Positions 4,523-63,286 of a stretch of 64,000 bases of DNA are shown piece after piece. The notes beneath the pieces are model-generated. The model was not told the origin of the DNA. It saw only the letters and a list, made by a program, of their open reading frames with translations, and did no database searches. Origin of the DNA: Candidatus Cloacimonadota bacterium (lineage in GTDB: Bacteria; Cloacimonadota; Cloacimonadia; Cloacimonadales; JAFGVF01); assembly GCA_016838885.1 (NCBI GenBank), contig JAEKNW010000151.1:3024-67023 (forward strand). Reading direction: 5' to 3'. Each line of letters opens with the position of its first letter. Position 1 is the first letter of the stretch. Position numbers and translations under genes: made by a program.

Positions 4523-4624
4523 AATATAGCGAGCAATAAAGCTCTTTTCTTCATAGACTTAAGTCATGAATTAAAAAAGGGCATAAGCCTATGATAAAAA
4601 AGTTTTTAATTAGGAGTTCAAAGA

Positions 4625-5251
4625 ATGTTAGATTTTGTTAAACTCAAGTTATATCAACGCTTGGGTTATAAGAGCTTAAGAAAAGGGAAGCATGAAAAAG
4701 CTTTAAAACATTTTGAGAAAGCAATGATAATTTCTCAAGAAGTTTCGATAATTTTCAATTATGTAGTAGCCCTCTCAGCACTTGGTAAATACTCTGAGGC
4801 CTATCCCTACTTGAAAAAAATACTATCTGAGTATAGGGATAATGAGATGGCAATCTCTCTTATGCTTTGGGTTTGTATGATGCTCAGAAAATGGGAAGAA
4901 GCTATCTCTCTATGTGAACAGATTAGGCTTCAATTTCCATCAAATCAAGAGTTCATTCATCTTTATGATATCCTTCAGAATAGTGAATTGAGAGAAAGAT
5001 TTATATCTGCTCATTCATTAATCAAGCAAGCTGATCAAAAGACTTTAAAAAAGGAATATTCAGAAGCTGTTGATTTACTAAAAAAAGCCTTAGAAATAAA
5101 CCCTGACGAAGCTCTTGCTTATAATAATTTAGCTTCAATTCATTTTACTCTTAAACTCAAAGATGAGGCAAAAGCATACATCAAAAAAGCAGTTGAATTG
5201 GACCCCTTAAACAAAAGATATAAACAGAATTTGAGAATTATTGATAAATAG
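4625..5251 (+). CDS. TPR-repeat protein
   Basis: 208 aa with repeated 34-aa helical motifs (e.g. YSEAVDLLKKALEINPDEALAYNNLA, AKAYIKKAVELDP). Confidence 0.6.
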   Translation: MLDFVKLKLYQRLGYKSLRKGKHEKALKHFEKAMIISQEVSIIFNYVVALSALGKYSEAYPYLKKILSEYRDNEMAISLMLWVCMMLRKWEEAISLCEQIRLQFPSNQEFIHLYDILQNSELRERFISAHSLIKQADQKTLKKEYSEAVDLLKKALEINPDEALAYNNLASIHFTLKLKDEAKAYIKKAVELDPLNKRYKQNLRIIDK

Positions 5252-5259
5252 AGGTTGAG

Positions 5260-6543
5260 ATGTTTAGTAAAGAAGAAATAATTTCGATTTTAAAAGAAGA
5301 TATTGCTCCTGCGCAAGGGTGCACAGAACCTATAGCAATAGCTTTAGCAACAGCTTATGTAACAAGTGTATTAACAGAACCTATCAATACAATTGAGGTT
5401 TATTTAAGTCAGAATATTTTAAAAAATGCACTTGGTGTTGGTATCCCCGGCACAAATGAAAGAGGGATTAAAATGGCTGTTGCCTTGGGAGCTGTAGCAG
5501 GTTTACCTGAACTCCAACTGGAAGTGCTTCAGCATGTTGACGAAGTGAACGTTAAAGATGCTCAAGTAATGATAGCAAAGAATGTAATCGAAATTAAACT
5601 AAGTACGAATGATGAACTCTTCTGGATTGAAGTAATAGCATACTCCGATAATCACAAAGCTACTGCAATTATGCAGGGGAAACATACTAATCTCTATAAA
5701 TTGACTGTTGATGATATGATTTTGCAAGAGAGCGGAAGAATTGATTCTGTTACCAAAAGTGATGATATTAGACAAATTATCCAGGTATCTGACATCTTAG
5801 ATGCTGTCTTGGCCTCCAATGAAGATGAGTTAGGTTTTTTAGAAGAGGTAATAACTAAAAACTTCGAAATTGCCAAATTTGGATTAGAAAACAACTCCGG
5901 ATATGGTATAGCTAAATCCATCCAAGAAAACATCCGAAATGGACTTTTTGGGGAAGGTATTGTTAATTATGCAACAATGCTCACAGTTGCGGGAAGTGAA
6001 GCCCGGATGAGTGGTTGCCAGCTCCCAGCCATGGCAAATTCAGGGAGTGGAAATCAAGGTATCACCCTAACTGTTCCAATGATTGCCCTGTCCGAAAGAC
6101 TAAACTCCAGTAGGTTAGAACTTCTGCAAGCTGTTGCAATTTCTCACTTAACATCAATACACGTAAAGAGTTATTTTGGTATTCTTTCTGCTTTATGTGG
6201 AATTGTAAATGCTTCTATTGGGATTAGTGCCGGAGCTGTATTTCTGCTTAAAGGCAAACTAACCAATATGGAAGCAGCAATTCAAAATGTTATTGGTGAT
6301 ATAGCCGGAATGATCTGCGATGGAGCAAAATTAGGTTGTTCTTTGAAAGTTGCTACCGGTGTTAGAACTGCTTTAAATAGTGCTATCTTAGGAATGTCTA
6401 ATATTTGTGTAAATGATTATGAGGGAATTAACGGGGCCAATATCGAAGAGTCTTTCAAAAATTTAGGGACTTTAGTTCTTGGAGGAATGAAAGAAGTTGA
6501 TAAATCGATCTTACAAGTAATGTTAAAAAAAGAAAATAAATAA
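5260..6543 (+). CDS. UPF0597 / L-cysteine desulfidase family protein (serine-dehydratase-alpha-like)
   Basis: 427 aa. N-terminal PAQGCTEPIAIALA motif as in YhaM/CdsB-type proteins. GSGNQG loop. Confidence 0.75.
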   Translation: MFSKEEIISILKEDIAPAQGCTEPIAIALATAYVTSVLTEPINTIEVYLSQNILKNALGVGIPGTNERGIKMAVALGAVAGLPELQLEVLQHVDEVNVKDAQVMIAKNVIEIKLSTNDELFWIEVIAYSDNHKATAIMQGKHTNLYKLTVDDMILQESGRIDSVTKSDDIRQIIQVSDILDAVLASNEDELGFLEEVITKNFEIAKFGLENNSGYGIAKSIQENIRNGLFGEGIVNYATMLTVAGSEARMSGCQLPAMANSGSGNQGITLTVPMIALSERLNSSRLELLQAVAISHLTSIHVKSYFGILSALCGIVNASIGISAGAVFLLKGKLTNMEAAIQNVIGDIAGMICDGAKLGCSLKVATGVRTALNSAILGMSNICVNDYEGINGANIEESFKNLGTLVLGGMKEVDKSILQVMLKKENK

Positions 6544-6566: not shown

Positions 6567-8585
6567 ATGATTGACTTTGATTACAAAAAAGCTATTAAAG
6601 TAAAGTTGTCAGATGAATTACCACCTAAAGCGGAGTTTGATCCCAGCAAACGAAGAGCTCCTGATAGAGGACTGAATCTTTCTAAATATGAAATTAAAAT
6701 TGCTTTGAAAAACGCTTTACGCTACATCCCAGAGCATCTCCACGAAGAAATTGCTCCTGAATTTCTTGAAGAACTTAAAACTATGGGGAGAATTTATGGC
6801 TATAGATACCGTCCCCAAGGTAAACTAATAGGTAAAGCAATCGATGAGTATAAAGGGATTACTCCTGCACGTGCTATGCAAGTAATGATAGATAATAACT
6901 TAGATTTCGAGATAGCCCTCTATCCTTACGAGCTAGTTACTTATGGTGAAACCGGCCAAATTTTCCAAAACTGGATGCAATACCAATTAATTAAACAATA
7001 CTTAGAGATTATGACTGAAGACCAAACTCTTGTGGTAGCTTCAGGACATCCTGTTGGACTATTCCCTTCAAAACCTGAAGCCCCACGTGTGATTAACACC
7101 AACGGTTTAGTAATAGGTAAATGGGACAATCCTGACGACTTTAAAAGACTCACTGCATTAGGAGTCGCTAATTATGGACAGATGACAGCCGGGGGTTGGA
7201 TGTATATCGGACCTCAAGGAATTGTGCACGGTACCTATATTACCCTTCTTAATGCGGGAAGAAAATATCTGGGAATCCCTGAAGATAAAGATTTGAAAGG
7301 GAAGATATTCCTTACTTCAGGACTGGGAGGTATGTCAGGTGCTCAACCAAAAGCTTGTGAAATTGCAGGTGGAATTTGTGTTGTAGCAGAAGTGGACCAT
7401 AGTCGCATCGAAACCCGTTATGAACAAGGATGGGTCTCAAAAGTTTCTGGTAATTTAGAAGAAATCAAGAATTGGATAGAAGAGTATAGAAAAATTGAAA
7501 AACCAATTTCTATAGCCTACCACGGTAATGTAGTTGACTTGTTAGAATATATAGATTCTCAAAATATTAAGATTGAACTATTATCAGATCAAACCTCCTG
7601 CCATGCCGTGTATGATGGTGGTTATACCCCAGCAGGCCTTGATTTCGAAGAGGGAAGAAGATTAATTAAAGAAGATTTGCCTAGATTTAAGAAATTGGTC
7701 GATGAATCTCTGCTTAGACACTTTGAGGTGCTAAAAAAACTCACTGCTAAAGGGGCTTATTTCTGGGATTACGGTAATAGTTTCATGGCTTCAATCTTTG
7801 ATGCAGGAGCAAAAGAAATTGCCAAAAATAAAGTCAACACTAATGAAGGTTTTATTTGGCCATCTTATGTTGAAGATATTATGGGTCCAATCTGCTTTGA
7901 TAATGGCTATGGGCCATTCAGATGGGTTTGTTTGTCCCGAAGAGATGAAGATTTAAGAAAGACTGATCAGATTGCTATGGATTGTATAGATCCAAAAAGA
8001 TGCTCTTTAGATCGAGATAATTATCATTGGATTGCCACCGCTGAGGAGAATGCTCTCGTTGTGGGTACTAGAGCAAGGATTCTCTATGCAGATGAAGAAG
8101 GTAGAGTCGAAATAGCTCTTAGATTTAATGAAGCAATTAGACAAGGCTTAATAGGACCTGTGATGCTGGGTAGAGATCATCACGATGTTTCAGGAACAGA
8201 TTCACCTTTCAGAGAGACTTCTAACATTTATGATGGCAGTAATGTGATGGCAGATATGGCAACTCACTGCTTTGGAGGAAATATTGCTAGAGGAATGTCT
8301 TTGGTTGTATTATCTAACGGAGGTGGTGTTGGTGTTGGAAGATCAATCAATGGTGGAAACGGTATTGTCCTTGATGGTTCAAAGAGAATGGACGAAATTA
8401 TTAAAAGTGCTCTATCTTGGGATGTTATGGGTGGTGTTGCCAGAAGAAACTGGGCAAGAAATACAAATGCAATTAAGACCTCATCCCAATGGAATGAAAA
8501 ACATGCCGGTGAGGGTCATATCACAATCCCATACTTAGCTGACGATAAATTCATTGACACATTAGTCGATGACAAAATAAAATAA
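6567..8585 (+). CDS. hutU: urocanate hydratase (long form)
   Basis: 672 aa. Urocanase signatures ANYGQMTAGGWMYIGPQGIVHGTY and GLGGMSGAQP. Confidence 0.9.
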   Translation: MIDFDYKKAIKVKLSDELPPKAEFDPSKRRAPDRGLNLSKYEIKIALKNALRYIPEHLHEEIAPEFLEELKTMGRIYGYRYRPQGKLIGKAIDEYKGITPARAMQVMIDNNLDFEIALYPYELVTYGETGQIFQNWMQYQLIKQYLEIMTEDQTLVVASGHPVGLFPSKPEAPRVINTNGLVIGKWDNPDDFKRLTALGVANYGQMTAGGWMYIGPQGIVHGTYITLLNAGRKYLGIPEDKDLKGKIFLTSGLGGMSGAQPKACEIAGGICVVAEVDHSRIETRYEQGWVSKVSGNLEEIKNWIEEYRKIEKPISIAYHGNVVDLLEYIDSQNIKIELLSDQTSCHAVYDGGYTPAGLDFEEGRRLIKEDLPRFKKLVDESLLRHFEVLKKLTAKGAYFWDYGNSFMASIFDAGAKEIAKNKVNTNEGFIWPSYVEDIMGPICFDNGYGPFRWVCLSRRDEDLRKTDQIAMDCIDPKRCSLDRDNYHWIATAEENALVVGTRARILYADEEGRVEIALRFNEAIRQGLIGPVMLGRDHHDVSGTDSPFRETSNIYDGSNVMADMATHCFGGNIARGMSLVVLSNGGGVGVGRSINGGNGIVLDGSKRMDEIIKSALSWDVMGGVARRNWARNTNAIKTSSQWNEKHAGEGHITIPYLADDKFIDTLVDDKIK

Positions 8586-8671
8586 CCTTTACTATAGAGA
8601 GTGTAGAAATACACTCTCTAAAAACTAAACTTGGGTAAAATATGAATTTTGGATTTAATTAGGAGTAAACA

Positions 8672-10039
8672 ATGGATACAAATATTGAAGCTTATGAAAA
8701 AAAAATGAGAGAAGCAGGCTTAAATGAAGACGTAATAACCACCTTCATTAAGTATTATAACCAATTGAAAGAAGGAATTACAGGTAAGCTTTCCCATGAT
8801 ATAATCGAAGCTCCAAATCGATTAAATTTAATAAACTACGATGGTTTAACAAAACATGATGATTCATTGTTAGACCAACTTGCAGTTATTAAACTAAATG
8901 GTGGATTAGGCACAAGTATGGGTCTGGATAAAGCAAAATCTCTCTTACCCGTTAAAGGTGAATTTAACTTTCTAGATATTCTTGCTAATCAAATAATTGC
9001 TCTAAGAGATAAATATCAATCTCGTATCCCTTTAATCTTTATGAATAGCTTTAAAACCCAGAAAGATACTATAACTTATCTTGAGAAATATGATACTCTT
9101 AAAAGTGATGATTTAGATCTTGATTTTCTCCAGAACAAATATCCCAGAATCAGACAAGATAATTTTATGCCCCTTAATTTAGCAGATGATGAGAATAATT
9201 GGAATCCGCCAGGACACGGTGATATTTATTCAGCACTTTACTCTTCAGGTTTGCTTGATCAACTTATAGAAAAAGGCTATAATTATGCCTTTATCTCTAA
9301 TTCAGATAACCTGGGAGCTGTTGTTGACCCTTTAATTCTAACCTTTATGGACAAAAATGAAGTCCCTTTTATCATGGAAGTTTGCCGAAGGACAGAAATG
9401 GACAAAAAGGGAGGTCATCTAGCCCAAACTAAAGAAGGCAAGCTGATTCTTAGAGAAGTTGCTCAATGCCCTGATGAAGAAATCTGCGAATTTCAAGATA
9501 TCAAAAAATATTCATTTTTTAATACCAATAATTTATGGGTCAATTTAAAGCATCTAAAAGAAACCCTGCTGGAAAACAATAACACACTTGAGTTACCCAT
9601 AATTATCAATCCTAAAAATGTCGAAAATATTCCAGTATATCAGATAGAAACGGCTATGGGAGCCGCTATAAGCGTCTTTGAAAATGCTAAAGCTATTATT
9701 GTCCCTCGCTCAAGATTTGCTCCTGTGAAAAAAACTAATGACCTATTACTTATTTGGTCTGATGTCTATAAAATAAATTCCGATTACCAAATTGTTCTTA
9801 CGGAAGGACTTGAAGAAGCACCTTTAATTGAATTAGATTCTGAGAACTATAAATCAGTAGAACAACTTAAAACTCACTTCAAAGAAGTCCCATCTTTAAT
9901 CCAGTGCACTAGCCTAAAAGTTCAAGGCAATATTCACTTCAGTAAAGATGTTGTAATTATCGGAAACGTAGAGATCAAAAGTACCGAAAAAGAGAGAATC
10001 TCCGATACTATTTTGAATAATGAAACTGTGATATTTTAA
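8672..10039 (+). CDS. UDPGP-family (eukaryotic-type) UTP--sugar-1-phosphate uridylyltransferase
   Basis: 455 aa. KLNGGLGTSMG nucleotide-binding loop, NSDNLGA, PPGHGD. This is the pattern of the UDP-glucose pyrophosphorylase (UGP2-like) family, not GalU. Confidence 0.8.
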   Translation: MDTNIEAYEKKMREAGLNEDVITTFIKYYNQLKEGITGKLSHDIIEAPNRLNLINYDGLTKHDDSLLDQLAVIKLNGGLGTSMGLDKAKSLLPVKGEFNFLDILANQIIALRDKYQSRIPLIFMNSFKTQKDTITYLEKYDTLKSDDLDLDFLQNKYPRIRQDNFMPLNLADDENNWNPPGHGDIYSALYSSGLLDQLIEKGYNYAFISNSDNLGAVVDPLILTFMDKNEVPFIMEVCRRTEMDKKGGHLAQTKEGKLILREVAQCPDEEICEFQDIKKYSFFNTNNLWVNLKHLKETLLENNNTLELPIIINPKNVENIPVYQIETAMGAAISVFENAKAIIVPRSRFAPVKKTNDLLLIWSDVYKINSDYQIVLTEGLEEAPLIELDSENYKSVEQLKTHFKEVPSLIQCTSLKVQGNIHFSKDVVIIGNVEIKSTEKERISDTILNNETVIF

Positions 10040-11689: not shown

Positions 11690-12268
11690 ATGAATTTTCT
11701 CTTATCATTGATTTTTTTACCTTTAAATTTGCTCTTTGGAGCATCTATTATCTGGTTAATCAGATGGCTCTTATTCAATAAGAAACAGAGATATATTTTT
11801 AAGAAAAAGAATATCTTAACTCCCGGATTGATTATAAAAGGGAAAAGTTATGCTTTAGGTAAAGTTCGGAATACAGTTAAAGAGTACTTTGATCAGGTTG
11901 ATGATTTTGAATCTCATCAGGGTTATATCTATAACTGGGAAAAGAAGGTTTACCAGAAAGTATATGATGCTACTGAGTTTATAGATAATGCCCGTTATAT
12001 TCCTACCAGTGTAGCTGATTGGTTGAGGCATGCGATCGCATTTATTGCTAAAGACTTATCATCCCGTTTTTTAAGAACCTTCATACCTTACCTTTATGAA
12101 TATTATGAAGTAAATAATAAAATCGATATGATAGCGGATAAGATTGATTTAGTTATGATTGAGAGTTATTATAACCAATACTGTCATAAATTCCTGATGT
12201 ACTTTAACTTATTCATATTCTTCTTAGCAGGAATTTTAAATCAGATTCTTTTCCTAATCTTAGTCTAA
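11690..12268 (+). CDS. membrane protein of unknown function
   Basis: 192 aa with hydrophobic N- and C-terminal segments and an AAGGAG RBS. The stop TAA overlaps the first bases of repeat 12267..12380. Confidence 0.45.
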   Translation: MNFLLSLIFLPLNLLFGASIIWLIRWLLFNKKQRYIFKKKNILTPGLIIKGKSYALGKVRNTVKEYFDQVDDFESHQGYIYNWEKKVYQKVYDATEFIDNARYIPTSVADWLRHAIAFIAKDLSSRFLRTFIPYLYEYYEVNNKIDMIADKIDLVMIESYYNQYCHKFLMYFNLFIFFLAGILNQILFLILV

Positions 12269-12380
12269 CCCAAATAATGCAGTAGATCTTTGAGAATAGC
12301 ACTATATTCTTTTGCATTCTTCACCTGTGATACGTAGCTTTAACGAAGTATTACTAAAGCCCTACTGCACCATTCGGGTT
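12267..12380. repeat. 114-nt copy of the AACCC...GGGTT inverted-repeat element family
   Basis: Starts aacccaaataatgcagtagatctttgag and ends ctactgcaccattcgggtt. The interior matches the two flanks of the 226-nt copy at 47456 with the middle deleted. Confidence 0.85.
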
Positions 12381-12398
12381 AAAAAAAAGGAGTTCAAT

Positions 12399-19013: not shown

Positions 19014-19063
19014 GATGAGACTGCTCAAATTAATTAGTTGATTAACACGAATTACTCTATTTA

Positions 19064-19111
19064 AACCCGAATAGTGCAATAGAACTTTAGGTAAGAGTGC
19101 ATCATTCGGGT
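19064..19111. repeat. 48-nt copy of the AACCC...GGGTT element family
   Basis: aacccgaatagtgcaatagaactttaggtaagagtgcatcattcgggt. Ends 15 nt before the ATG at 19127. Confidence 0.8.
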
Positions 19112-25937: not shown

Positions 25938-25948
25938 TTTATTTGTTT

Positions 25949-25985
25949 AACCCGAATGGTGCAGTAGAACTTTGATGAAGAGTGC
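25949..25985. repeat. solo left terminus of the AACCC...GGGTT element family
   Basis: aacccgaatggtgcagtagaactttgatgaagagtgc. No matching right terminus was found downstream. Confidence 0.7.
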
Positions 25986-26117
25986 TGGGATTGCGGGCTT
26001 CAAGCCCGTATTAGAAACCGGTAACTCGTTGCCGGTTCTTATCATCTTGCTGTTAGCAAGATAGATCATTTCTCCTCTTTAGGAGAAATGAATACGGGCT
26101 GGAAGCCCGCAATCCCA
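25986..26117. other. GC-rich 132-nt inverted-repeat element enclosing three hairpins (candidate structured RNA or MITE)
   Basis: The 27-nt arms tgggattgcgggcttcaagcccgtatt (25986-26012) and aatacgggctggaagcccgcaatccca (26091-26117) are complementary with 1 mismatch. Hairpins lie at 26016-26037, 26044-26062 and 26068-26089. Confidence 0.6.
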
Positions 26118-31790: not shown

Positions 31791-31839
31791 CTGGTTGTAG
31801 TTTCTGTTATTGGCCTTCAAAAGAGCCACTATTTTAGTT

Positions 31840-32167
31840 GGCTCTCTCTCAAGTAGGGTGGGTCTTAGAAAAAAAAAATAGAAGTATCTTTGAAGTATGC
31901 CATGTTCACAACAGATACAGGATTATAAAAACACACCATTCTACCAGCTGCAGAGGCAGCGACATCTTTGTAGTTCAGAAAGCTAAAAACTATCCATAAG
32001 CTCCAGAGGAGCGGCACATCTAAGGCTTTTTGTGTCGCTCCTCTGGAGCTTAGGTTATTGTTTGGCATCTGTTATCTACAAAGATTTCGCTCCTCCGGAG
32101 CTATGAGGATTTTGAAGCTTCTTGATTCACAATTAGATTTAGTTCCCACCCTACTTGAGAGAGAGCC
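31840..32167. mobile_element. palindromic MITE-like element with perfect 23-nt terminal inverted repeats
   Basis: ggctctctctcaagtagggtggg (31840-31862) and cccaccctacttgagagagagcc (32145-32167). Nested internal inverted repeats include a perfect 17-bp pair, taagctccagaggagcg / cgctcctctggagctta. Confidence 0.75.
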
Positions 32168-32210
32168 TTTTAGTTTAAAAGCGTAAAGCATCTTTACGCC
32201 ATTTCTCTTT

Positions 32211-32244
32211 AAAACAGAAAAGAGGTGCTATATTCAGCACCTCT
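32211..32244 (-). terminator. rho-independent terminator after frr
   Basis: The minus strand reads agaggtgct-loop-agcacctct followed by TTTCTGTTTT. Confidence 0.75.
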
Positions 32245-35657: not shown

Positions 35658-36080
35658 CTATAAAGTCTTTGGTTGTTGAGCTGTATGAGGATGTTCAGTT
35701 CCAGCATACACCTTAAGTTTCTTAAACATTTGTCTGCCAAGGGAGTTTTTAGGTAACATACCTTTAACAGCACTTCTAATAATTTCTTCCGGTTTAGCAT
35801 CTAACATTTTTTTAAAGCTTACTTCTCTTAAACCACTTGGATAACCACTGTAGTTCTGATACACTTTTGAATCTGCTTTTGTACCGGTAACTCCGACTTT
35901 CTCTGCATTAATAACAACCACAAAATCACCACAATCTAAGTTTGTAGCAAAATAAGGCTTGTTTTTTCCGCGGAGAATGGAAGCTATTTTTGTCGCAATA
36001 CGACCTAAAGTTTGACCTTCAGCATCGACAACATACCAATCCCTTTGAATCTGATCAGGGGTGGGAGTTAAAGTCTTCAT
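35658..36080 (-). CDS. rplM: 50S ribosomal protein L13
   Basis: [28 protein letters not shown] signature, and rplM-rpsI order. Confidence 0.95.
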
Positions 36081-36184
36081 CCTTTCTCCTTTTCTTTTAC
36101 TTATCTCTAAGTTAATTCACTTTTTTATAAGGAGTTAAATATAAAACTCCTTTAGCGTAACAAAATATTTATTATCCCCGATAT

Positions 36185-36221
36185 ATGTCAAGACATTTAT
36201 TAATTTAGGGAAATGTTTATC
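36185..36221. repeat. 37-nt direct repeat, left copy (carries TTGACA on the minus strand upstream of rplM)
   Basis: atgtcaagacatttattaatttagggaaatgtttatc. Identical except for 1 nt to 40205-40241. Confidence 0.9.
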
Positions 36222-36223
36222 AC

Positions 36224-36498
36224 TAATGGTGCAGTAGAGCTTTAGTAATACTTCGCTAATACATTCTACATAGCTTTCTACTTCTCTAAAGCTACGTAGA
36301 ATGTATTAGCGAAGTAGAAAGCTAAGTATCACAGGTGAAGAGTGTAGATTCTTTTAGCAAAAATAAATTACAGAATCTTCTTGAATATATATTATATACC
36401 AGTTAAGGATGCCCCCCATATCTCCCTCAAAGATGGAGATTTGGCACTTTTTCTGCTTTAGCGACTTCTTTCTAAATCTATAATACACCATTTCGTTG
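36224..36498. repeat. rearranged 275-nt copy of the AACCC...GGGTT element family (truncated left end, degenerate right end)
   Basis: Starts aatggtgcagtagagctttag (the family terminus lacking AACCCG). The interior is colinear with parts of the 47456 copy. It contains perfect 21-nt (36249-36269 / 36296-36316) and 14-nt (36271-36284 / 36311-36324) inverted repeats. Confidence 0.7.
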
Positions 36499-36514
36499 CA
36501 TAATATAAGGTAAC

Positions 36515-39256
36515 TTATTCAAGATTAACTCTGATTTGATATAAGCTTTTAAGATCATTAACAATAGATTTATAAACTGATTTATCAATATTGAAAGCTT
36601 TCATAATTTCCATTTCAAATTGTAATCTGTCGGGTGATTCTATTTCTTCTAATAATGGTTTTCTATCTCTTACTAAGATTTTATTAAAGTGACTCAATAT
36701 TGTATCTTGCTGTTTAGTTGTAAGACAACTTGGGTTGAGCATTCTAAAATTATTTTTTATTTTCGTAGAGCTTAAGTCCAATGCTCCAAGTCCTCTACCA
36801 AATCCTAAACTCTCTATAAAAAACATACTAATAACTGAATTAAATAGAGCCAAAATCACGAGTTTACTCTTATGAGACAATTTAGTTTTTGATTTAAATC
36901 CGATTACTCGTTGATCAATAATTGATTTTTGTTCTAAATATGCCACAAATAAACTATCGGCAAAATTGATATTCATAACAAAGTCCGCAACATTATCTGA
37001 GTCCATTTGGTACCAGTCATGTTGTTTTGTTTTTAATACTTCAGGCAAAGGTTTATTTTTGCTATTTGTCATTTTAGAGAATCTATTTATCCATGACAGG
37101 GTTTTGGTGTGTCCCTTTTTTCTTAATTCTTTTATTGAAAGATCACAACAAAATGCAAATGAATTTGGATTGCATATTAAACCTTTCGTTGTTCTAAGAT
37201 TTTTCACTAAAGGAAGCAAGTAATCTTTTTCAATATTTGGTTCATTGGTTGGATAAAATAAATCATTCCAGCCTCTTCTTTCTCCACGATAAATATCAAA
37301 TAGTTCATGAGCGTAAATCAAGTTCTTTTGGATTTCATTGAACCATTCGATATTGACAAAGAAACTTGACCAAGAAAAACCATTATTTTCAAGAAATTCC
37401 AAGTTATCCTTGCTTCTTCTAATTATTCTTATTTCATTTGACGATTTGTTTAAGAGTATTTTTTCTGATAAGTCTTTCAGGCTTAAATATGTTTCAATAG
37501 GTTTCAGCAAAGTGCAAAAACTGATAAATCCAGAATTAGTGTTGTTGTTTTTCTTTGTAGCAATGAGTATACAGGTTACGATATCCGCATTACCAAACCA
37601 TCTTTTACTCCCAGAGATGATTAGTTTATCTATATCATAAAATAACTGAAATAATTCGATAAATTGTGAACCATAATCAGTGCCTAACCAAGCATTTGAC
37701 AAAATTAATCCTATACGACCGGAATCTTGTAAAAGTTTATGGATAGAAAATATAATATAGATATAGAAATCCGACCTTCTGTTAAATCTATAAGGTCTGT
37801 GTATATGATTCTTTATATAAATTTCTATCTCGCTAATATTGCTATTCTCATAATCAATATCCCCATTATTAATAAAAGGGAGATTGGAAATAATTGCACC
37901 TATTTTGGGTACTTCTTTTTTTACTATTTCACCATCAAAGGGGTTTCTAAATTCAATTATTAGCCCTGCATAAAGATCAAAGACATCAGAACAATGTATA
38001 TTCATAATCTGTCCATATTGATCTAAATTTGTTAATGATAATGTACTTAATTGTATAGGAAAGAAATATTTATCAGAAGCCCAGATATTATTTATAATTT
38101 CTTGGTTGTTGATATTGTATTCTTGTTTGATTTCCATAACTTTTTTTACAATTGTTCCTGTACCACAACATGGATCCATTACAGATGATTCTTTGTCATT
38201 AAGAGTTAATCTAACAATGAGCTCTGCTATAATTTCCGGTGTTGTAAATTGACCAGCTATCCTTCTTTTACTATATTGCAAAGACTCTTCAAAGAAGGAT
38301 TGAATAATTTGAATATCAATACCTTGAATATTTATTGAGCTAAAAAAGGAGTTTAATTGTTTAATCTCAAACCATGATTCATCATCGATCAATGATTGTC
38401 CAATATGAGGTCTGAAAATATTCCAAAAATTGCAATTTAATGAAATGTAAGAAAAATAATCAATCGCTTGGGATTTTTCTGTTGTTTCTTTAATTTTTTC
38501 GATAATTAATGCTACATTAAAATATCTTTTTATTATGTTAGCAAAGATTATCTTAATAATCCAATCTGTAAGAACAATTTTACTCAAAATATTGAGTTTT
38601 TCATCATCCTCACCAAAAGAGAAACCATACTCATAAGAAGTATCGCTCCACCAATGATTTATCTCTGCTTCCAGAATACTATTTTTTCTAATTTCTTTAG
38701 AAATAGAAAGTTTAGTTTCTAGAGAATTAGAAAGGACTACATCAAATATTTTTTCTATTGAAAAAAGTGAAACTAATTGCTTATTATGATTTGCATTTGA
38801 GAAAAACATGTTTAAATATTCCAGTATTTCATGCAACAACTTCTTCCAAAGATGTACATGACACTCTACATCATATCTGTCATGAATACTGTCTATTCTC
38901 CAGGATTTTCTTTCTACAAAAATATTGCCCTCTTTGTTATATAATTTACACGATTTAACATTCCATAGAATAAAACTATTTCTATTCAAAATGTTGGCTT
39001 TTAGCGTGGCATTATTAATAAATTCCAAATCATCGATAGAGGTATCTGGCATTTTTAACTCCCACCCATGCAAAATAGAACTTTTATTATTATCTTTGAA
39101 GAGCAATAAATCAGGGAATAATGTTCTTTTCTCAAAACTCAAAGAATTTTCTCCACCTGCCATTGCAATAACCCAAGATTTATTGGATAGATACTGATTA
39201 ATTTCGGTTATAACATCAATTGCCCAACTTCTTTCGTTTATTTTAATTTTATTCAC
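36515..39256 (-). CDS. Type IIG/IIL-like restriction-modification protein: N-terminal PD-(D/E)xK-like region, gamma-class N6-adenine MTase core, C-terminal TRD
   Basis: 913 aa with a GTG start. N-terminal FPD(49)LLLF...GWE(66)LK(68). MTase motifs in gamma order: GQFTTPEIIAELIV (X), VMDPCCGTGT (I), ISNLPF (IV). C-terminal IYRGERRGWNDLFY resembles TaqI/Eco57I-type specificity domains. Confidence 0.75.
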   Translation of the reverse strand: MNKIKINERSWAIDVITEINQYLSNKSWVIAMAGGENSLSFEKRTLFPDLLLFKDNNKSSILHGWELKMPDTSIDDLEFINNATLKANILNRNSFILWNVKSCKLYNKEGNIFVERKSWRIDSIHDRYDVECHVHLWKKLLHEILEYLNMFFSNANHNKQLVSLFSIEKIFDVVLSNSLETKLSISKEIRKNSILEAEINHWWSDTSYEYGFSFGEDDEKLNILSKIVLTDWIIKIIFANIIKRYFNVALIIEKIKETTEKSQAIDYFSYISLNCNFWNIFRPHIGQSLIDDESWFEIKQLNSFFSSINIQGIDIQIIQSFFEESLQYSKRRIAGQFTTPEIIAELIVRLTLNDKESSVMDPCCGTGTIVKKVMEIKQEYNINNQEIINNIWASDKYFFPIQLSTLSLTNLDQYGQIMNIHCSDVFDLYAGLIIEFRNPFDGEIVKKEVPKIGAIISNLPFINNGDIDYENSNISEIEIYIKNHIHRPYRFNRRSDFYIYIIFSIHKLLQDSGRIGLILSNAWLGTDYGSQFIELFQLFYDIDKLIISGSKRWFGNADIVTCILIATKKNNNTNSGFISFCTLLKPIETYLSLKDLSEKILLNKSSNEIRIIRRSKDNLEFLENNGFSWSSFFVNIEWFNEIQKNLIYAHELFDIYRGERRGWNDLFYPTNEPNIEKDYLLPLVKNLRTTKGLICNPNSFAFCCDLSIKELRKKGHTKTLSWINRFSKMTNSKNKPLPEVLKTKQHDWYQMDSDNVADFVMNINFADSLFVAYLEQKSIIDQRVIGFKSKTKLSHKSKLVILALFNSVISMFFIESLGFGRGLGALDLSSTKIKNNFRMLNPSCLTTKQQDTILSHFNKILVRDRKPLLEEIESPDRLQFEMEIMKAFNIDKSVYKSIVNDLKSLYQIRVNLE

Positions 39257-39273
39257 ATTCTATAATACTCACA

Positions 39274-40158
39274 CTATCTAATAACGTGATATTCTGAAAT
39301 GGGGTCTTTAAAAAAATCAATATTCATTTGTTCATAGTTATTGTTTTTCAATGTTTCCTCAATTCTATTAGTACAAATCTCAATATAATCAATTTTATTC
39401 TTTTTGTGCAATAAAGCATATTCATTTTTTTCAATTCCAATGAAATTCCTACCTTCTATCATAGCCGAAATTAAAAAACTACCACTACCACAAGCATTAT
39501 CTAATATATAATCTCCGGGGTTAGAAAACGTTCTGATCAAATATCTTCCTAATTCAATAGGCTTTTGTGTTGGATGGAATACTTTCCCCTCTGATTCAGC
39601 AGTTTTAAAGTAAACAAAATCATCATGTTGTTCGTCATCAGCAAAAGTAATTATATCAGTAGGATAACGATCCCCATTGCTTTTAACATGACGTGGTTTG
39701 AAATCTCCATAGCTTCCTGTATATTGATCTTTTCTAAAACCCTTGTCATATGCTAACCCTTGTTCCATTTGAGGATTATAGGTTGTTTGATTTTTATAAA
39801 AAACACAAATATCTTCATGTTTCCTTAATGGTTGTTTCTTTGCATTCAGAAAATTGGTAGCCTTAGATTTTATCCAAACGATTTTATATTTAAATTCTTT
39901 TGGATTACTAAGGATTAACTTAGCCGTGAACAAACCTTGTGATGTTAAAACAATAGCTCCGTTATCTTTGACTATTCGTCTATACTGGTGCCAAAGCTTA
40001 TCTAAATCAATAACTGAATCCCATTTATTTTGCGTTGTTCCATAAGGTAAGTCACATAGGACCATATCAATACTATTATCTGGGAAATTTTGCAATACCT
40101 CTAAACAATCACCTTGAATAACTTTGTTTTTAAATTTTTCTATTTTAGAAATATTCAT
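39274..40158 (-). CDS. beta-class N6-adenine/N4-cytosine DNA methyltransferase
   Basis: Motif IV DLPYG precedes motif I ILDNACGSGSFLISA (beta-class order). FHPTQKPIEL. The start is taken at MNISKIEKF (ATG 40158) because the listed ATG 40206 lies in the duplicated TTGACA element. Confidence 0.8.
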   Translation of the reverse strand: MNISKIEKFKNKVIQGDCLEVLQNFPDNSIDMVLCDLPYGTTQNKWDSVIDLDKLWHQYRRIVKDNGAIVLTSQGLFTAKLILSNPKEFKYKIVWIKSKATNFLNAKKQPLRKHEDICVFYKNQTTYNPQMEQGLAYDKGFRKDQYTGSYGDFKPRHVKSNGDRYPTDIITFADDEQHDDFVYFKTAESEGKVFHPTQKPIELGRYLIRTFSNPGDYILDNACGSGSFLISAMIEGRNFIGIEKNEYALLHKKNKIDYIEICTNRIEETLKNNNYEQMNIDFFKDPISEYHVIR

Positions 40159-40204
40159 TTTTATACCTAATATTTTTTTATTATTTTTTATACCCTGCAA
40201 AATC

Positions 40205-40241
40205 ATGTCAAGACATTTATTAATTTGGGGAAATGTTTATC
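40205..40241. repeat. 37-nt direct repeat, right copy
   Basis: atgtcaagacatttattaatttggggaaatgtttatc. 4020 bp from the left copy. Confidence 0.9.
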
Positions 40242-40249
40242 CCTTGGAT

Positions 40250-40282
40250 AAAACAGAAAGGGAGATTTTAATCTCCCTTTTT
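40250..40282 (-). terminator. rho-independent terminator after rpoD
   Basis: 10-bp stem aaagggagat/atctcccttt. The minus strand follows with TTCTGTTTT, and there is also a T-run on the plus side. Confidence 0.8.
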
Positions 40283-40306: not shown

Positions 40307-42049
40307 TTAAGTTTTTAGGTTAAAGTTATTGATAAATTCTTGCAGAATGGAAGCTCTGGTAGGGTGTCTTAATTTTTTTAGAGCTTTATCCTCGATTTGT
40401 CTAATTCGTTCTCTGGTAACATTAAAGATATTTCCCACTTCTTCTAAGGTTCTATGGAAGCCATCATCGATTCCAAATCTAAGTCTGATAACTCTTTCCT
40501 CACGTGGAGTAAGGGTTTGCAGAACTTCGTCGACTTGTCTTTTAAGCAGAGATCTTTCAGCTAATCTTTCAGGTGATATAGTTGATTTATCTTCAATGAA
40601 GTCTCCTAAGATACTATCTTCAGAATCGTTTCCGATTGGTTTATCTAGCGAAACAGGTTCTTTTGAGATATTGAGAATAGATTTAACTTTATCAATAGGC
40701 ATTTCGAGTGCTTGAGCGATTTCTTCCGGGAAGGGGTCTCTACCCAGTTTTTGCATAAGCCGTCTGGAGGTACGATTGATTTTATTAATAGATTCAATCA
40801 TGTGGACAGGGACTCTGATGGTTCTAGCTTGGTCTGCTATAGCCCGGGTTATAGCTTGTCTAATCCACCATGTTGCGTAAGTACTGAATTTATATCCTTT
40901 TTTATAGTCGTATTTATCCACAGCTTTCATCAAGCCTGTATTACCTTCTTGAATGAGGTCTAAGAAGTCTAAGCCACGATTATTATATCTTTTAGCGATA
41001 GAGATAACTAATCTTACGTTAGCTTCAATCATATCGCTTTGGGCTCTCTCTTTAGTTCTTTCACCTCTTTCGATTTCTCGGAGAAGGAAGACTAATTCAC
41101 TGGCAGTCATGCGAGTTTCTAATTCAACACGGCGAATCTTTCTTTTAGCATTTTTGATTTTTCTGAGTGTTTCAACAAAGATATTAGGATCAACGTTGGT
41201 CTCAGTTCGAACTTCTTCAAATTCTTCATCAGATTTTTTTGCTTTTCTGCCATAAGAGCAGATTTCTTCGATAGAGAATTTCTTAATTCGAGTAATATCA
41301 TCAATAATTTTATTAGATTCAAGGATTCTATCGACAAGGCTTCGAACACGATAAACCAATCTTTTTATAAGTTTATCATTGAAGACGAAAGTGGAGAAAA
41401 GTTCTACGATTCTTTCGCGATTAGAATCTATTTCTTCTTGTCGGGCAGCTAATCCGGTATCATCAAAGTCCGTGTTATTAAGGATTTCACCAATAACATC
41501 GAAGCATTTCTCGATTTCATTAAGTCTAGATTTGAAAATTTCGATTATTTCATCAGGTTTTTTATTATCAAGTTCAGTTCCAAAATCTATTTTGAAGATT
41601 TGGTCTAATCTAATTCTTTTTTCTTTAAAGCGGTGTAAGAAGTTCTGCATTTCTCTAAAAGTAGAACCGGAGAGATAGACATTGCTGGTTATCATTTTGT
41701 GGTAAACTTCGATCTTTTTAGCAACTCTGATTTCGCCTTCACGGTCAAGTAAAGGGACTCTTCCCATCTCTTTTAGATACATTCTTACAGGGTCATCGTA
41801 GTATTTACGAGTTTTGAGAGTTTTTGATTTCTTCTCTTTTTTAACTTTAACTTGAGCTTTACTAACTTTATTCTCAGTTTCATCAATAACCTCAATATTC
41901 TCTTGTAGAAGATCGAAGAGAATATCATCAATTTTGTCTAGGAAAATAGGATTAGCAGGAAGAAGCTCGTTAATTTGCCTAAAGGTAATAAACCCAGCCT
42001 CTTTACCAATTTCAACTAATTTTTTTATACAATCATTATAAGTTAGCAT
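40307..42049 (-). CDS. rpoD: RNA polymerase primary sigma factor
   Basis: Regions 1.1-4 recognisable: [60 protein letters not shown] at 42049 (a TTG one codon upstream is an alternative). Confidence 0.93.
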
Positions 42050-42058
42050 CAAATCTCC

Positions 42059-43780
42059 TCAAGTTAATAAATTGCTTACTATAGCAGTATCTAAGCGTAA
42101 GATTTCGTTTTTAATATTCTGTTTTTTTTCTAAAAGCTCTGTTGTAAAGCCTTCGATTTGGATCTCTTTATTTACAACATTTAAATCATTTTTCAGTTTC
42201 CGGAGTTTCATATCCTTGATAATGTGCAGGATGTCTCTTTGAGGTTGACCTAAAAGAACTAACTCAACTGCAATATTCTTTAAACTCTCTTCTTTGAAAA
42301 AATCTATGATTTGGGAATGAGTAAACAAATTAAGAAATCCCTCATTTTCTGTCAAAGTATTAAACATTTTTTTATAATTAACATCAAAAAAGTAATCTGA
42401 ATTAAGGATTTCGCAAATATTTTTTAGCTCTTCAGGGTTATTAAACATAAATTGGAAGAGTTCTTTCTCTTCGCTATGTTGCGAAAGGGTAAATCCTGTG
42501 GAAGTTTTAGGTCTTTGGACTACCTGTTGTCTTTGATTTACGGTAGCTTTCAAAGAGTTCTCATTAATTCCAAATTCCTCACTGATATTTTTTATAATCA
42601 TCTCTCTATCAATCAAATCTGATACCTTTCCAACACTTTCTAAAAGAAGTTTTATTTTATCTTTATTCTCAGCAGCCAGAATTTTAGTCTCTTTGACAAA
42701 TCTTAAAAATGGGACAGGTTGATCAATCAGCTTTTGTAAAAATTCTTTTCCTTCTTTGAGAAGAATAGAATCAGGGTCTTCTCCTTGAGGTAAGGGGATA
42801 ACTTTGGCAGTTAAGCCTAATTCAATACATTTTAAGCCACTACTAATGGTAGCTTTTCTGCCTGCTTCATCACCGTCGAAGAGGAAGTAAACGTTTTTGC
42901 TATACCTGCTGAGCAGAGAAAGTTGTTTTTCTGTAAGGGCTGTTCCTAAGGCGGCAACACAATTGGTAAAACCGGATGAGTATAATCTAAGAAAATCTAA
43001 ATAGCCCTCACAAACTATGCCATAATTTGTTTTAGCAATCTCATATTTAGTGAGGAAGAGTCCGTAAAGTTCATTACCTTTGGTGTAAAGTTCGGTTGTT
43101 GGAGAATTTATATATTTCCCACCAATATCACTATCCTCTAGTTGTCTTCCTCCAAAAGCTACAATTTGCCCGGTATAAGAATGGATAGGAAACATTAATC
43201 TGTTTCGGAAAGCATCATATTTTCCTTTATTGCTGTCCTTAAAGAGTCCACTATCAGTAATAATCTCTTCTGGTATATCTTCCCGCTTGACTTGGTTAAG
43301 AAGTCCTGTAAAACTATCAAGAGCATAGCCTATTTCAACTTTATTAGCTAACTCTGGTGATATACCCCTATTGTTTAGGTATTTATAGACTCCATCTCCA
43401 TATTCTTTAAGATTATTTACAAAATATTCATTAGCTAAGCGATAGATATTTATTAATTTAGTCTTTTTGGATTCAGCTCTTTTATCTCCAGATGTTTCTT
43501 TAACTGTGATTCCTACTCTTTGGGCTAGCTTTTTAACAGCTTCCATGAAGGTGATTTTCTCATATTCTTGGACAAAAGTGAAGACATTTCCACCTTTACC
43601 ACACACAAAGCATTTGAAGATTTGTTTCTGTTCTGAGACCATCATAGAAGGGTTTCTGTCATCGTGAAAAGGACATAATCCTTTGTAGTTTGTACCACTA
43701 CGTTTCAGTGGCACATAAGCTGAAATTACATCAACTATGTTATTACTTTCTCTGATTTGCTCTATTAAAGAGTTATCCAT
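42059..43780 (-). CDS. dnaG: DNA primase
   Basis: Zinc ribbon CPFHDDRNPSM...CFVCGKGG, TOPRIM EGYLD, and dnaG-rpoD order. Confidence 0.92.
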   Translation of the reverse strand: MDNSLIEQIRESNNIVDVISAYVPLKRSGTNYKGLCPFHDDRNPSMMVSEQKQIFKCFVCGKGGNVFTFVQEYEKITFMEAVKKLAQRVGITVKETSGDKRAESKKTKLINIYRLANEYFVNNLKEYGDGVYKYLNNRGISPELANKVEIGYALDSFTGLLNQVKREDIPEEIITDSGLFKDSNKGKYDAFRNRLMFPIHSYTGQIVAFGGRQLEDSDIGGKYINSPTTELYTKGNELYGLFLTKYEIAKTNYGIVCEGYLDFLRLYSSGFTNCVAALGTALTEKQLSLLSRYSKNVYFLFDGDEAGRKATISSGLKCIELGLTAKVIPLPQGEDPDSILLKEGKEFLQKLIDQPVPFLRFVKETKILAAENKDKIKLLLESVGKVSDLIDREMIIKNISEEFGINENSLKATVNQRQQVVQRPKTSTGFTLSQHSEEKELFQFMFNNPEELKNICEILNSDYFFDVNYKKMFNTLTENEGFLNLFTHSQIIDFFKEESLKNIAVELVLLGQPQRDILHIIKDMKLRKLKNDLNVVNKEIQIEGFTTELLEKKQNIKNEILRLDTAIVSNLLT

Positions 43781-47426: not shown

Positions 47427-47455
47427 TGTAAAAATATATAAAGTTACTCGCATTA

Positions 47456-47681
47456 AACCCAAATAATGCAGTAGAATTTAGGGATAAAGCGAATAGCACT
47501 ATCTTCTTTTGCAAAAGTAAGCTACATCATTTTCAGGAATATATATATTATATGCCTTTTATGGATGCACCCTCTGTGTCCCCCTCAAAGAAGGGGATTT
47601 TGCTAAAAGAACCTAGCACTCTTCACCTGTGATACGTAGCTTTAGCGAAGTATTATCAAAGTTCTAATGCCCATTCGGGTT
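47456..47681. repeat. 226-nt full-length copy of the AACCC...GGGTT element family
   Basis: Starts aacccaaataatgcagtagaatttaggg and ends ctaatgcccattcgggtt. Lies between promoter 47398 and the dapA RBS. Confidence 0.85.
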
Positions 47682-47702
47682 AAACGAGAAAAGGAGAAAG
47701 AA

Positions 47703-63063: not shown

Positions 63064-63092
63064 TAGAACAGAATCCTTTGTTATATTATTTT

Positions 63093-63257
63093 AACCCGAA
63101 TGATACAGTAGAACTTTAGGGAAGAGTACAGATTCTTCCAGCAAAGTAAGTTACAGAATTTGATTGCATATAATATATATATTCAAGAAAATTATGTAGC
63201 TTACTTTTGCAGAAGAATATATTGCTATTCACAAAGGTCTACTGCATTATTTGGGTT
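63093..63257. repeat. 165-nt copy of the AACCC...GGGTT element family
   Basis: Starts aacccgaatgatacagtagaactttaggg and ends ctactgcattatttgggtt. The left end lies 29 nt upstream of the minus-strand ATG at 63063. Confidence 0.85.
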
Positions 63258-63286
63258 TTAAAAAAACAGCCCGATAAAAGGCTGTT
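63258..63286 (-). terminator. rho-independent terminator after hisS
   Basis: The minus strand reads aacagcc-loop-ggctgtt followed by TTTTTT. Confidence 0.7.

Follow-up and report, generated by a model that had tools for sequence, protein, structure and literature searches.

A two-gene restriction-modification island between direct repeats of rplM promoter sequence in a Cloacimonadota population, probably inserted with long target duplication

Layout and composition of the rpoD-rplM locus

We analyzed a 64,000-nt stretch of DNA from Candidatus Cloacimonadota bacterium (contig JAEKNW010000151.1 of assembly GCA_016838885.1, positions 3,024 to 67,023; hereafter the window, whose own coordinates are used throughout), in which rpoD and rplM are separated by a restriction-modification (RM) island bracketed by direct repeats. 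With a probability of about 0.75, we interpret the island as a mobile RM unit of ~3.98 kb that inserted into the rpoD-rplM spacer with a long target duplication. On the minus strand, from the rpoD side to the rplM side, the order is mutS2, dnaG, rpoD, a hairpin, the right repeat copy, a DNA methyltransferase (MTase) gene, a 913-aa gene, a spacer, the left repeat copy and rplM, and downstream of rplM on the same strand lie rpsI, rpsB, tsf, pyrH and frr. The features of the locus are as follows:

40205-40244, minus strand: right repeat copy, rpoD-proximal, with the minus-strand reading AGGGATAAACATTTCCCCAAATTAATAAATGTCTTGACAT; TTGACA at 40211-40206, 47 nt 5' of the MTase ATG
40159-40204, minus strand: island-specific spacer with a candidate -10 box and the 5' untranslated region of the MTase gene; nucleotide homology to related units (L086, L087) begins at ~40185
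39274-40158, minus strand: beta-class DNA MTase, 294 aa from ATG 40158
36515-39256, minus strand: 913-aa Type IIG restriction enzyme-methyltransferase
36225-36497, minus strand: element of ~270 nt resembling a miniature inverted-repeat transposable element (MITE), filling the spacer from the RM stop codon to the left repeat, with an internal 68-nt palindrome at 36249-36316
36185-36224, minus strand: left repeat copy, the upstream half of the native rplM promoter, with its spacer, AT-rich stretch and -35 box (TTGACA at 36191-36186)
36081-36184, minus strand: downstream part of the predicted rplM core promoter and leader, single copy, from alignment with sister genomes; conserved hairpin at 36129-36152
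35658-36080, minus strand: rplM, then rpsI, rpsB and tsf
40257-40280, minus strand: terminator-like (intrinsic) hairpin 3' of rpoD, with the right repeat copy 12 nt downstream
40307-42049, minus strand: rpoD, gene identity confirmed
42059-43780, minus strand: dnaG, gene identity confirmed

By its predicted structure, the hairpin at 40257-40280 separates the island from rpoD transcription. From repeat start to repeat start the insert measures 4020 bp, and 290 nt lie between the stop codon of the 913-aa gene and the left repeat. The two RM genes are the only long open reading frames (ORFs) of the island, and no integrase, transposase or tRNA gene was found inside it or beside it; the MITE-like element within the insert is non-autonomous.

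The content of guanine plus cytosine (GC) is 27-30% across the island versus 33-38% in its flanks, and 28.9% in the RM unit versus 34.9% in the remaining window. The 913-aa gene is the lowest in GC of the 47 genes (z-score -2.1), the MTase gene has a z-score of -1.6, and Asn, Ile and Lys together make up 29% and 27% of the two RM proteins versus 22.9 +/- 3.1%. The shift in GC at third codon positions is modest (z = -1.0 and -1.4). The unit is thus foreign in composition, and the shift is real but moderate.

An initial annotation, made from the sequence alone, had described an AT-rich and Asn/Ile/Lys-rich, RM-like island that holds a beta-class MTase gene, a 913-aa fused gene and one repeat element, bracketed by 37-bp direct repeats with one mismatch 4020 bp apart, each carrying TTGACA, about 100 nt before rplM and about 45 nt before the MTase gene. 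All of this was borne out by the counts above and by the protein and repeat analyses below, in which the repeat element became the ~270-nt MITE-like element and the two distances became 105 and 47 nt.

The two RM proteins

The smaller protein matches Pfam N6_N4_Mtase (1e-25) and the PADLOC Type II MTase model MTase_II (PDLC03251, 2e-65). The mechanical ORF list and gene callers extend it to 310 aa and position 40206, with a start inside TTGACATG whose ATG overlaps the -35 box. Because the N-termini of homologues align with MNISK..., we place the start at ATG 40158.

The 913-aa protein matches the PADLOC model REase_MTase_IIG (PDLC03606) over residues 2-910 with E = 2e-237, and Pfam N6_Mtase and Eco57I, the latter weakly (26.4 bits versus a cut-off of 25.3). 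Its architecture comprises an N-terminal PD...ExK nuclease, a gamma-class N6-adenine MTase and a C-terminal recognition region. In an alignment with 18 homologues of 45-59% identity, the nuclease signature P48-D49...E66-L-K68, MTase motif I (D361-x-C-C-G-T-G) and motif IV (N458-L-P-F461) are all invariant, and because of this both RM proteins look intact. The gene starts (39256) with GTG in the window and with ATG in two further assemblies that carry the island (L001 and L002, below). A sequence search of the PDB returned no close solved structure (best match a Type I HsdM segment, E = 5e-4), and a search of NCBIfam returned nothing above its cut-offs. An Eco57I-type Type IIG enzyme with an asymmetric site requires a second MTase for the other strand, and by analogy the island pair would fit this pattern of a Type IIG enzyme with its second-strand MTase.

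Direct repeats and the native rplM promoter

The two repeat copies agree at 38 of 40 positions (36 of 37 within the 37-mer), and on the minus strand both terminate with TCTTGACAT, ending in TTGACAT; the TTGACA of the left copy lies 105 nt 5' of the rplM ATG. Allowing up to three mismatches, we found two copies of the 37-mer in total in the 64-kb window and no match in 100 shuffles, and ~7e-12 direct pairs of 38/40 would be expected by chance within 8.5 kb. Within the window, the 37-mer therefore did not turn out to be the dispersed repeat that the initial annotation had named as the finding that would speak against it. CTTGACA occurs three times in the whole window, counting both strands.

Loci found through RplM identify the host as a member of the Candidatus Cloacimonadales. 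To place the repeat relative to rplM, we compared five sister genomes (L005-L009; RplM identity 88-96%). TCTTGACAT and, in part, AATTAATAAA are kept upstream of rplM in all of them, TCTTGACATATAT...ATAAATATTTTGTTACGCTAAAGG... and the leader hairpin are likewise conserved in all five, and the AT-rich stretch 5' of the -35 box is partly common to the window and L005. In each sister locus (~9300-10000) conservation begins ~12 nt 5' of the rplM -35 box. By this conservation of the -35 box and leader, the left copy is identified as native, the upstream half of the rplM promoter, in agreement with the earlier view of it as the rplM -35/upstream element.

Beyond the promoter, the sister genomes differ. 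Only L008 has mutS2-dnaG-rpoD directly 5' of rplM, with a gap of ~700 bp that holds other repeats and no RM genes. Upstream of rplM lie a dapA-like gene and a 974-aa gene in L005, the same two genes plus ORFs resembling those of the insertion sequence IS3 (8358-9570) in L006, pilus/secretion genes in L007 and other genes in L009. None of these relatives carries the two RM genes at this site; their presence there in all relatives, without repeats and with native composition, was the other finding that the initial annotation had named as speaking against it. Because the upstream neighbors differ among the sister genomes, these alignments mark the DNA immediately 5' of the rplM promoter as a hotspot of rearrangement and insertion, one that tolerates both as long as the promoter is kept or duplicated. 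The adjacency of rpoD and rplM occurs in only one of the five, and we rejected the idea that it is an ancestral, "sensitive" locus; the two core operons of the initial annotation do not form a conserved junction.

Two observations concern these spacers themselves. In L008 the spacer (L008:9300-10000) is filled for ~700 nt by repeats of another family (TAATTAGCAATTAGCAATTAG..., GCAATCCCAG...). Fragments of this family also occur just upstream of the RM unit that the same metagenome-assembled genome (MAG) carries at another locus (L087:6900-7080). The rplM leader hairpin (36129-36152, minus strand; AAGGAGTT...AACTCCTT) pairs a Shine-Dalgarno-like arm with an anti-Shine-Dalgarno-like arm, and in a comparison of six Cloacimonadales genomes, compensatory changes preserve four of its eight pairs. 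An Rfam search returned only sub-threshold look-alikes and no match for this hairpin, which may be a candidate autoregulatory leader for L13/S9.

Occupied and empty alleles in one population

Searches for exact protein matches showed that the island is also present in an NCBI metagenome assembly (L001), in Joint Genome Institute (JGI) sample 3300001336 (L002) and in two Logan samples (L094 and L095). Its identity to the window is 99.65-99.7% in L001 and L002, so that the structure is seen in three independent full-length assemblies. A scan of a metagenome contig collection with the core of the 37-mer gave no matches; the collection evidently lacks this organism, though the JGI contig L002 does contain the 37-mer. 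On the minus strand, position 40227 of the right copy is C only in the window and T in L001, L002, L094 and L095, and in L001 and L002 the two copies are identical at 40 of 40 positions.

An empty site with a single 37-mer, as the initial annotation had proposed to look for, was found in the same population. Contig L003 of Logan sample SRR30684748 reads ...TTAAAATCTCCCTTTCTGTTTTATCCAAGG-GATAAACATTTCCCTAAATTAATAAATGTCTTGACAT-ATATCGGGG..., that is, rpoD terminator, single 37-mer and rplM leader. The rpoD contig of the same sample (L085) ends ...CCAAGG and overlaps L003 by 30 nt; it is the only record for RpoD read from ATG, and exact look-ups of RpoD read from a TTG start and of RpsI returned no record. 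Over 4 kb of flank, L003 is the sequence closest to the window (99.72% identity, versus 99.17% for L001 and 99.27% for L002).

We considered whether the occupied or the empty structure could be an assembly product. In the island-bearing Logan samples, contigs (L004, L094 and L095) begin with a common 30-mer, ATTTCCCTAAATTAATAAATGTCTTGACAT, and then split into rplM or the island, and SRR30684748 has no island contig on record. Contigs that break inside the repeat, together with this lack of an island contig, argue against an assembly short-cut across the repeat as the source of the empty site. AT-rich sequence and metagenome assembly are the setting in which a chance match or an artefact might arise. 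Against this stand the chance expectation and the shuffles given above, the three full-length assemblies, and the contigs of two Logan samples that break at the repeat just as a real duplication predicts. We rejected this explanation, whose probability is negligible. The island is a presence/absence polymorphism within one species-level population, and an occupied and an empty allele have thus both been caught in one wild population of an uncultured phylum.

Elsewhere in the window, downstream of frr, lies a large imperfect palindromic repeat (31820-32240; 161-nt arms, 77% identity) at which L001 and L002 diverge from the window, marking another strain-variable spacer.

Age and direction of the polymorphism

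We compared the divergence of the island with that of the adjacent ribosomal-protein flank:

Window versus L001: island 0.35%, flank 0.83% (Fisher p 0.005)
Window versus L002: island 0.30%, flank 0.73% (Fisher p 0.008)
L001 versus L002: island 0.05%, flank 0.58% (Fisher p 1e-5)

Because the island is less diverged between strains than this flank, the comparison fits an island that is younger than its flanks, having arrived recently and spread by recombination.

The opposite direction has to be weighed as well. The island with its two repeats could be the older state, and the empty allele of L003 could result from precise deletion by recombination between the 37-40-bp repeats, a change that would alter the direction of the polymorphism and leave the original formation of the repeats as it is. 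In sequence, the flank of L003 is nearest to that of the island-bearing window, with hardly any changes of its own, and one site supports a derived group of the window and L003. In addition, the single copy of L003 joins AGG, as in the right copy of the window, to T, as in the left copy, which is what a crossover between the two would produce. On the other side, the island is 2.4 to >10 times less diverged than the ribosomal-protein flank, which points to recent arrival and spread, the unrooted four-sequence tree allows L003 as the outgroup, and an ancestral AGG...T target accounts for the allele pattern too. The alleles of L003 thus fit gain and precise loss alike, and on balance we regard deletion as possible but doubtful.

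The joints and the MITE-like element

The closest relatives of the unit, with 59% protein identity and ~69% nucleotide identity, come from other Cloacimonadales and occupy three unrelated loci: L086 (from the L007 genome), L087 (from the L008 MAG) and L091. They show the same order of MTase gene and fusion gene and have low GC. No long flanking repeats were found around these three units. TCTTGACA sits 47-49 nt before the MTase ATG in all three and 47 nt before it in the window, where the repeat ends (TCTTGACA|T) on the -35 box of the RM unit itself. Because TCTTGACA recurs at this distance in the units at those loci, the right joint probably falls within at least 8 bp common to the MTase promoter of the unit and the rplM promoter. 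The stretch upstream of the L086 unit also matches the 37-mer at 18 of 23 positions, and the best promoter-like match for the MTase gene in the window is TTGACA-17-AAAAAT. This modifies the claim that the insertion duplicated part of the rplM promoter and placed the MTase gene behind it. The duplication stands, given the single copy at the empty site and the native left copy; the borrowed -35 box is put in question, as units elsewhere have their own TCTTGACA.

At the other end, the MITE-like element lies between the stop codon of the Type IIG gene and the left repeat. Its family has the hallmarks of a MITE, being short, non-coding and multi-copy with terminal inverted repeats: members are ~130-270 nt long, end in CCCGAATGGTGCAGTAGAACTTTAG...CTAAAGCTCTACTGCACCATTCGGG, lie in intergenic spacers and have TTAA(A)-like flanks at several copies. 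We detected it in contigs of this species only, the 20-kb loci of the sister genomes having yielded none. In the window, at least five further copies are recognized by the terminal repeat CCCGAATGGTGCAGTAGAACTTTAG and its complement:

12267-12392: MITE copy
47455-47682: MITE copy
63089-63262: MITE copy
19058-19110: partial copy
25943-25990: partial copy

The island copy is diverged, and its 68-nt palindrome is extra relative to the family. At its outer end the terminal inverted repeat is truncated (...CACCATT|AGTGATAAAC, versus CACCATTCGGG followed by TTAA in the family): CGGG and TTAA are missing, CACCATT abuts the left direct repeat, and there is no target-site duplication. On the simplest reading, the left joint falls inside the terminal repeat of a MITE that already lay behind the RM gene. 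A joint inside the MITE would mean that the inserted segment had its source at a different locus, in a genome with this MITE family. We rejected a simple origin of this joint through microhomology of the MITE end (CGGGTTAAAC) with the target (AGGGATAAAC), since the observed CACCATT|AGTGAT would need two further changes.

In L001 and L002 (L001:1-465, L002:1-34; window ~40271), one or two MITE copies have inserted 27 nt from the right repeat, in the loop (TTAAAA) of the hairpin that follows rpoD. They form a second insertion polymorphism within the same 200-nt spacer.

These features bear on whether the repeats could be the attL/attR attachment sites of an integrative element with a site-specific recombinase, or the island a composite transposon bounded by MITEs or insertion sequences. 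Att sites typically have direct repeats of this length, one end of the island holds a MITE, and L001 and L002 have their further copies just past the other end. In the window, however, the rpoD side has no MITE and the island MITE is truncated at the joint, and the repeat is native promoter sequence that is single at the empty site. Site-specific integration was rejected because there is no recombinase in or beside the island, nor is there a transposase or a tRNA gene, and this whole class of explanation is very improbable.

Proposed course of the insertion

The preferred reading, insertion with long target duplication, would run as follows. An RM unit consisting of the MTase gene, the Type IIG gene and a trailing MITE would have entered the 200-nt rpoD-rplM spacer, with its rpoD-side joint forming within TCTTGACA, common to both promoters, and its rplM-side joint inside the MITE terminal repeat. 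With a stagger of 37-40 bp between the joints, that length of target could have been duplicated by template switching or by repair or replication across staggered breaks; it comprises the -35 box of the rplM promoter together with the spacer and AT-rich stretch 5' of it. The MTase gene would then read from a hybrid promoter with host upstream and -35 sequence and its own -10 box, while the rplM promoter would stay complete; both repeat copies are putatively active promoter elements. The repeats would now permit precise loss or tandem amplification of the island.

How the unit found its target is a separate question. The -35/upstream region of the unit may have paired with the ribosomal-protein promoter, a second joint staggered 37-40 bp upstream then completing the insertion. 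We put such promoter-homology-guided insertion forward tentatively and consider it unlikely. If true, it would have produced twin promoters, with the MTase gene on a ribosomal-protein-type promoter and the island anchored beside an essential operon, and if other RM insertions with long target duplication share joints in promoter boxes, it would give the first mechanistic handle on this mode of mobility since 2000. A copy of GATTTTGCAGGGTATAAAAAATAATAAAAAAATATTAGG preceded by other upstream sequence would mark the donor locus.

The resemblance of the L086 upstream region to the 37-mer at 18 of 23 positions is one point for Campbell-type integration. Here a circular unit that already contained the 37-40-bp promoter segment, for example one excised in another strain, would enter by a single homologous crossover, and the repeats would be the crossover homology instead of a new duplication. 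The 40/40 identity of the repeats in L001 and L002 suits this, and the lower divergence of the island than of its flanks is expected under horizontal spread within the population, for which it is a possible route between strains. Family units recovered as contigs bounded by repeats (L120 and L111, below) would fit circular or tandem forms. However, this route leaves the first insertion unexplained, no circular form of the island was seen, and the 37-mer is absent from the homologous units found elsewhere. Besides, 37-40 bp of homology comes close to the minimum for RecA-type recombination. Campbell-type integration thus seems an improbable origin of the repeats.

Several points weigh against insertion with target duplication itself. 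The single copy of L003 is equally expected from a crossover between the two copies of the window, and L003 groups with the island-bearing window, in an unrooted four-sequence tree that does not decide direction. The count of two 37-mers covers the 64 kb of the window, and more may exist elsewhere in the genome. The candidate -10 box of the MTase gene is weak (AAAAAT at 17 nt) and does not align with the TATAAT-like boxes of other units at 18-19 nt. Lastly, no donor sequence was found, the nearest homologue being 59% identical, and the -35 microhomology is deduced from paralogous units.

Related units and known systems

We surveyed 80 further loci of the same family of Type IIG enzyme and MTase, with 300 mismatched flank pairs as the null and with flanking repeats, not empty sites, as its subject. 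Long flanking repeats occur in 5 of ~71 units of the family, and the longest null match was 19 nt. Four of the units with their repeats are:

L111: 216-nt flanking repeat, ~33-248 and 5360-5576
L120: 62-nt flanking repeat, 1-62 and 4614-4675
L145: 35-nt flanking repeat, 2210 and 7118
L142: 25-nt flanking repeat, 285 and 5022

These four units have 46-48% identity and are probably from Bacteroidota. L120 and L111 are whole contigs bounded by their repeats, and several of the repeat-bracketed units have an extra small ORF (108-145 aa) 5' of the MTase gene.

"Insertion with long target duplication" was described for Helicobacter pylori by Nobusato et al. 2000, as cited in Furuta, Abe and Kobayashi 2010 (PMC2853133). 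The latter list as criteria that the insert holds a restriction and a modification gene, is <20 kb, is flanked by a duplication of >30 bp, has no other mobile element and is matched by a single copy at the empty site. They suggest double-strand breakage as a common step and note that the repeats permit amplification. The island has both genes, is <20 kb, shows a duplication of >30 bp, lacks a mobility gene and has a single copy at the empty locus; for repeat uniqueness, two copies were counted within the 64-kb window. We conclude that it is a further case of an RM insertion mode that has already been described, which supports the interpretation.

The initial annotation had pointed to a lineage very different from Helicobacter. 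The cases in PMC2853133, however, already span about ten genera (Helicobacter, Haemophilus, Thermus, Campylobacter, Microcystis, Neisseria, Acidovorax, Burkholderia, Clavibacter and others), including a Type IIG and MTase pair in Thermus, and the lineage adds little. A literature search on Cloacimonadota and restriction-modification found nothing. The current understanding of RM mobility is unchanged by the island. What is new is the likely right joint in a -35 box common to unit and target, the left joint in a MITE, and an island apparently younger than its flanks, and the occupied and empty alleles of one population add to the value of the case. It thus provides a well-documented natural case of RM unit movement without any mobility gene, in which both joints bear on the insertion route, for example microhomology-primed repair or replication rather than a transposase.

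Set beside individual known systems, the island resembles att-flanked islands and prophages in its direct repeats of tens of bp and the possibility of precise excision, and differs from them in having no recombinase and no tRNA target and in a repeat that is ordinary host promoter DNA. With Eco57I-type enzymes it shares a single chain made up of PD-(D/E)xK nuclease, gamma-class N6-adenine MTase and recognition domain, together with a companion MTase; it differs in its weak Eco57I Pfam match and in a companion of the beta-class N6_N4 type, and is known here from sequence alone. Compared by description, a close parallel in gene content and insertion style is found in Thermus thermophilus HB27, where TTC1877 (Type IIG/S RM) and TTC1880 (Type II M), a fused Type IIG enzyme and a separate methyltransferase, are associated with a 47/47-bp duplication relative to HB8 (PMC2853133, Table 2), versus 37-40 bp in the Cloacimonadota island. 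With the RM insertions with long target duplication as a group, the island shares restriction and modification genes, a small size (4.0 kb), the lack of a mobility gene, repeats of >30 bp, an empty site and a deviating GC content. It differs from them in its uncultured Cloacimonadota host, known from metagenome contigs, in a target that appears to be the upstream/-35 half of a ribosomal-protein promoter, where PMC2853133 makes no mention of promoters, and in joints that would lie at the -35 box of the unit itself on one side and inside a MITE on the other.

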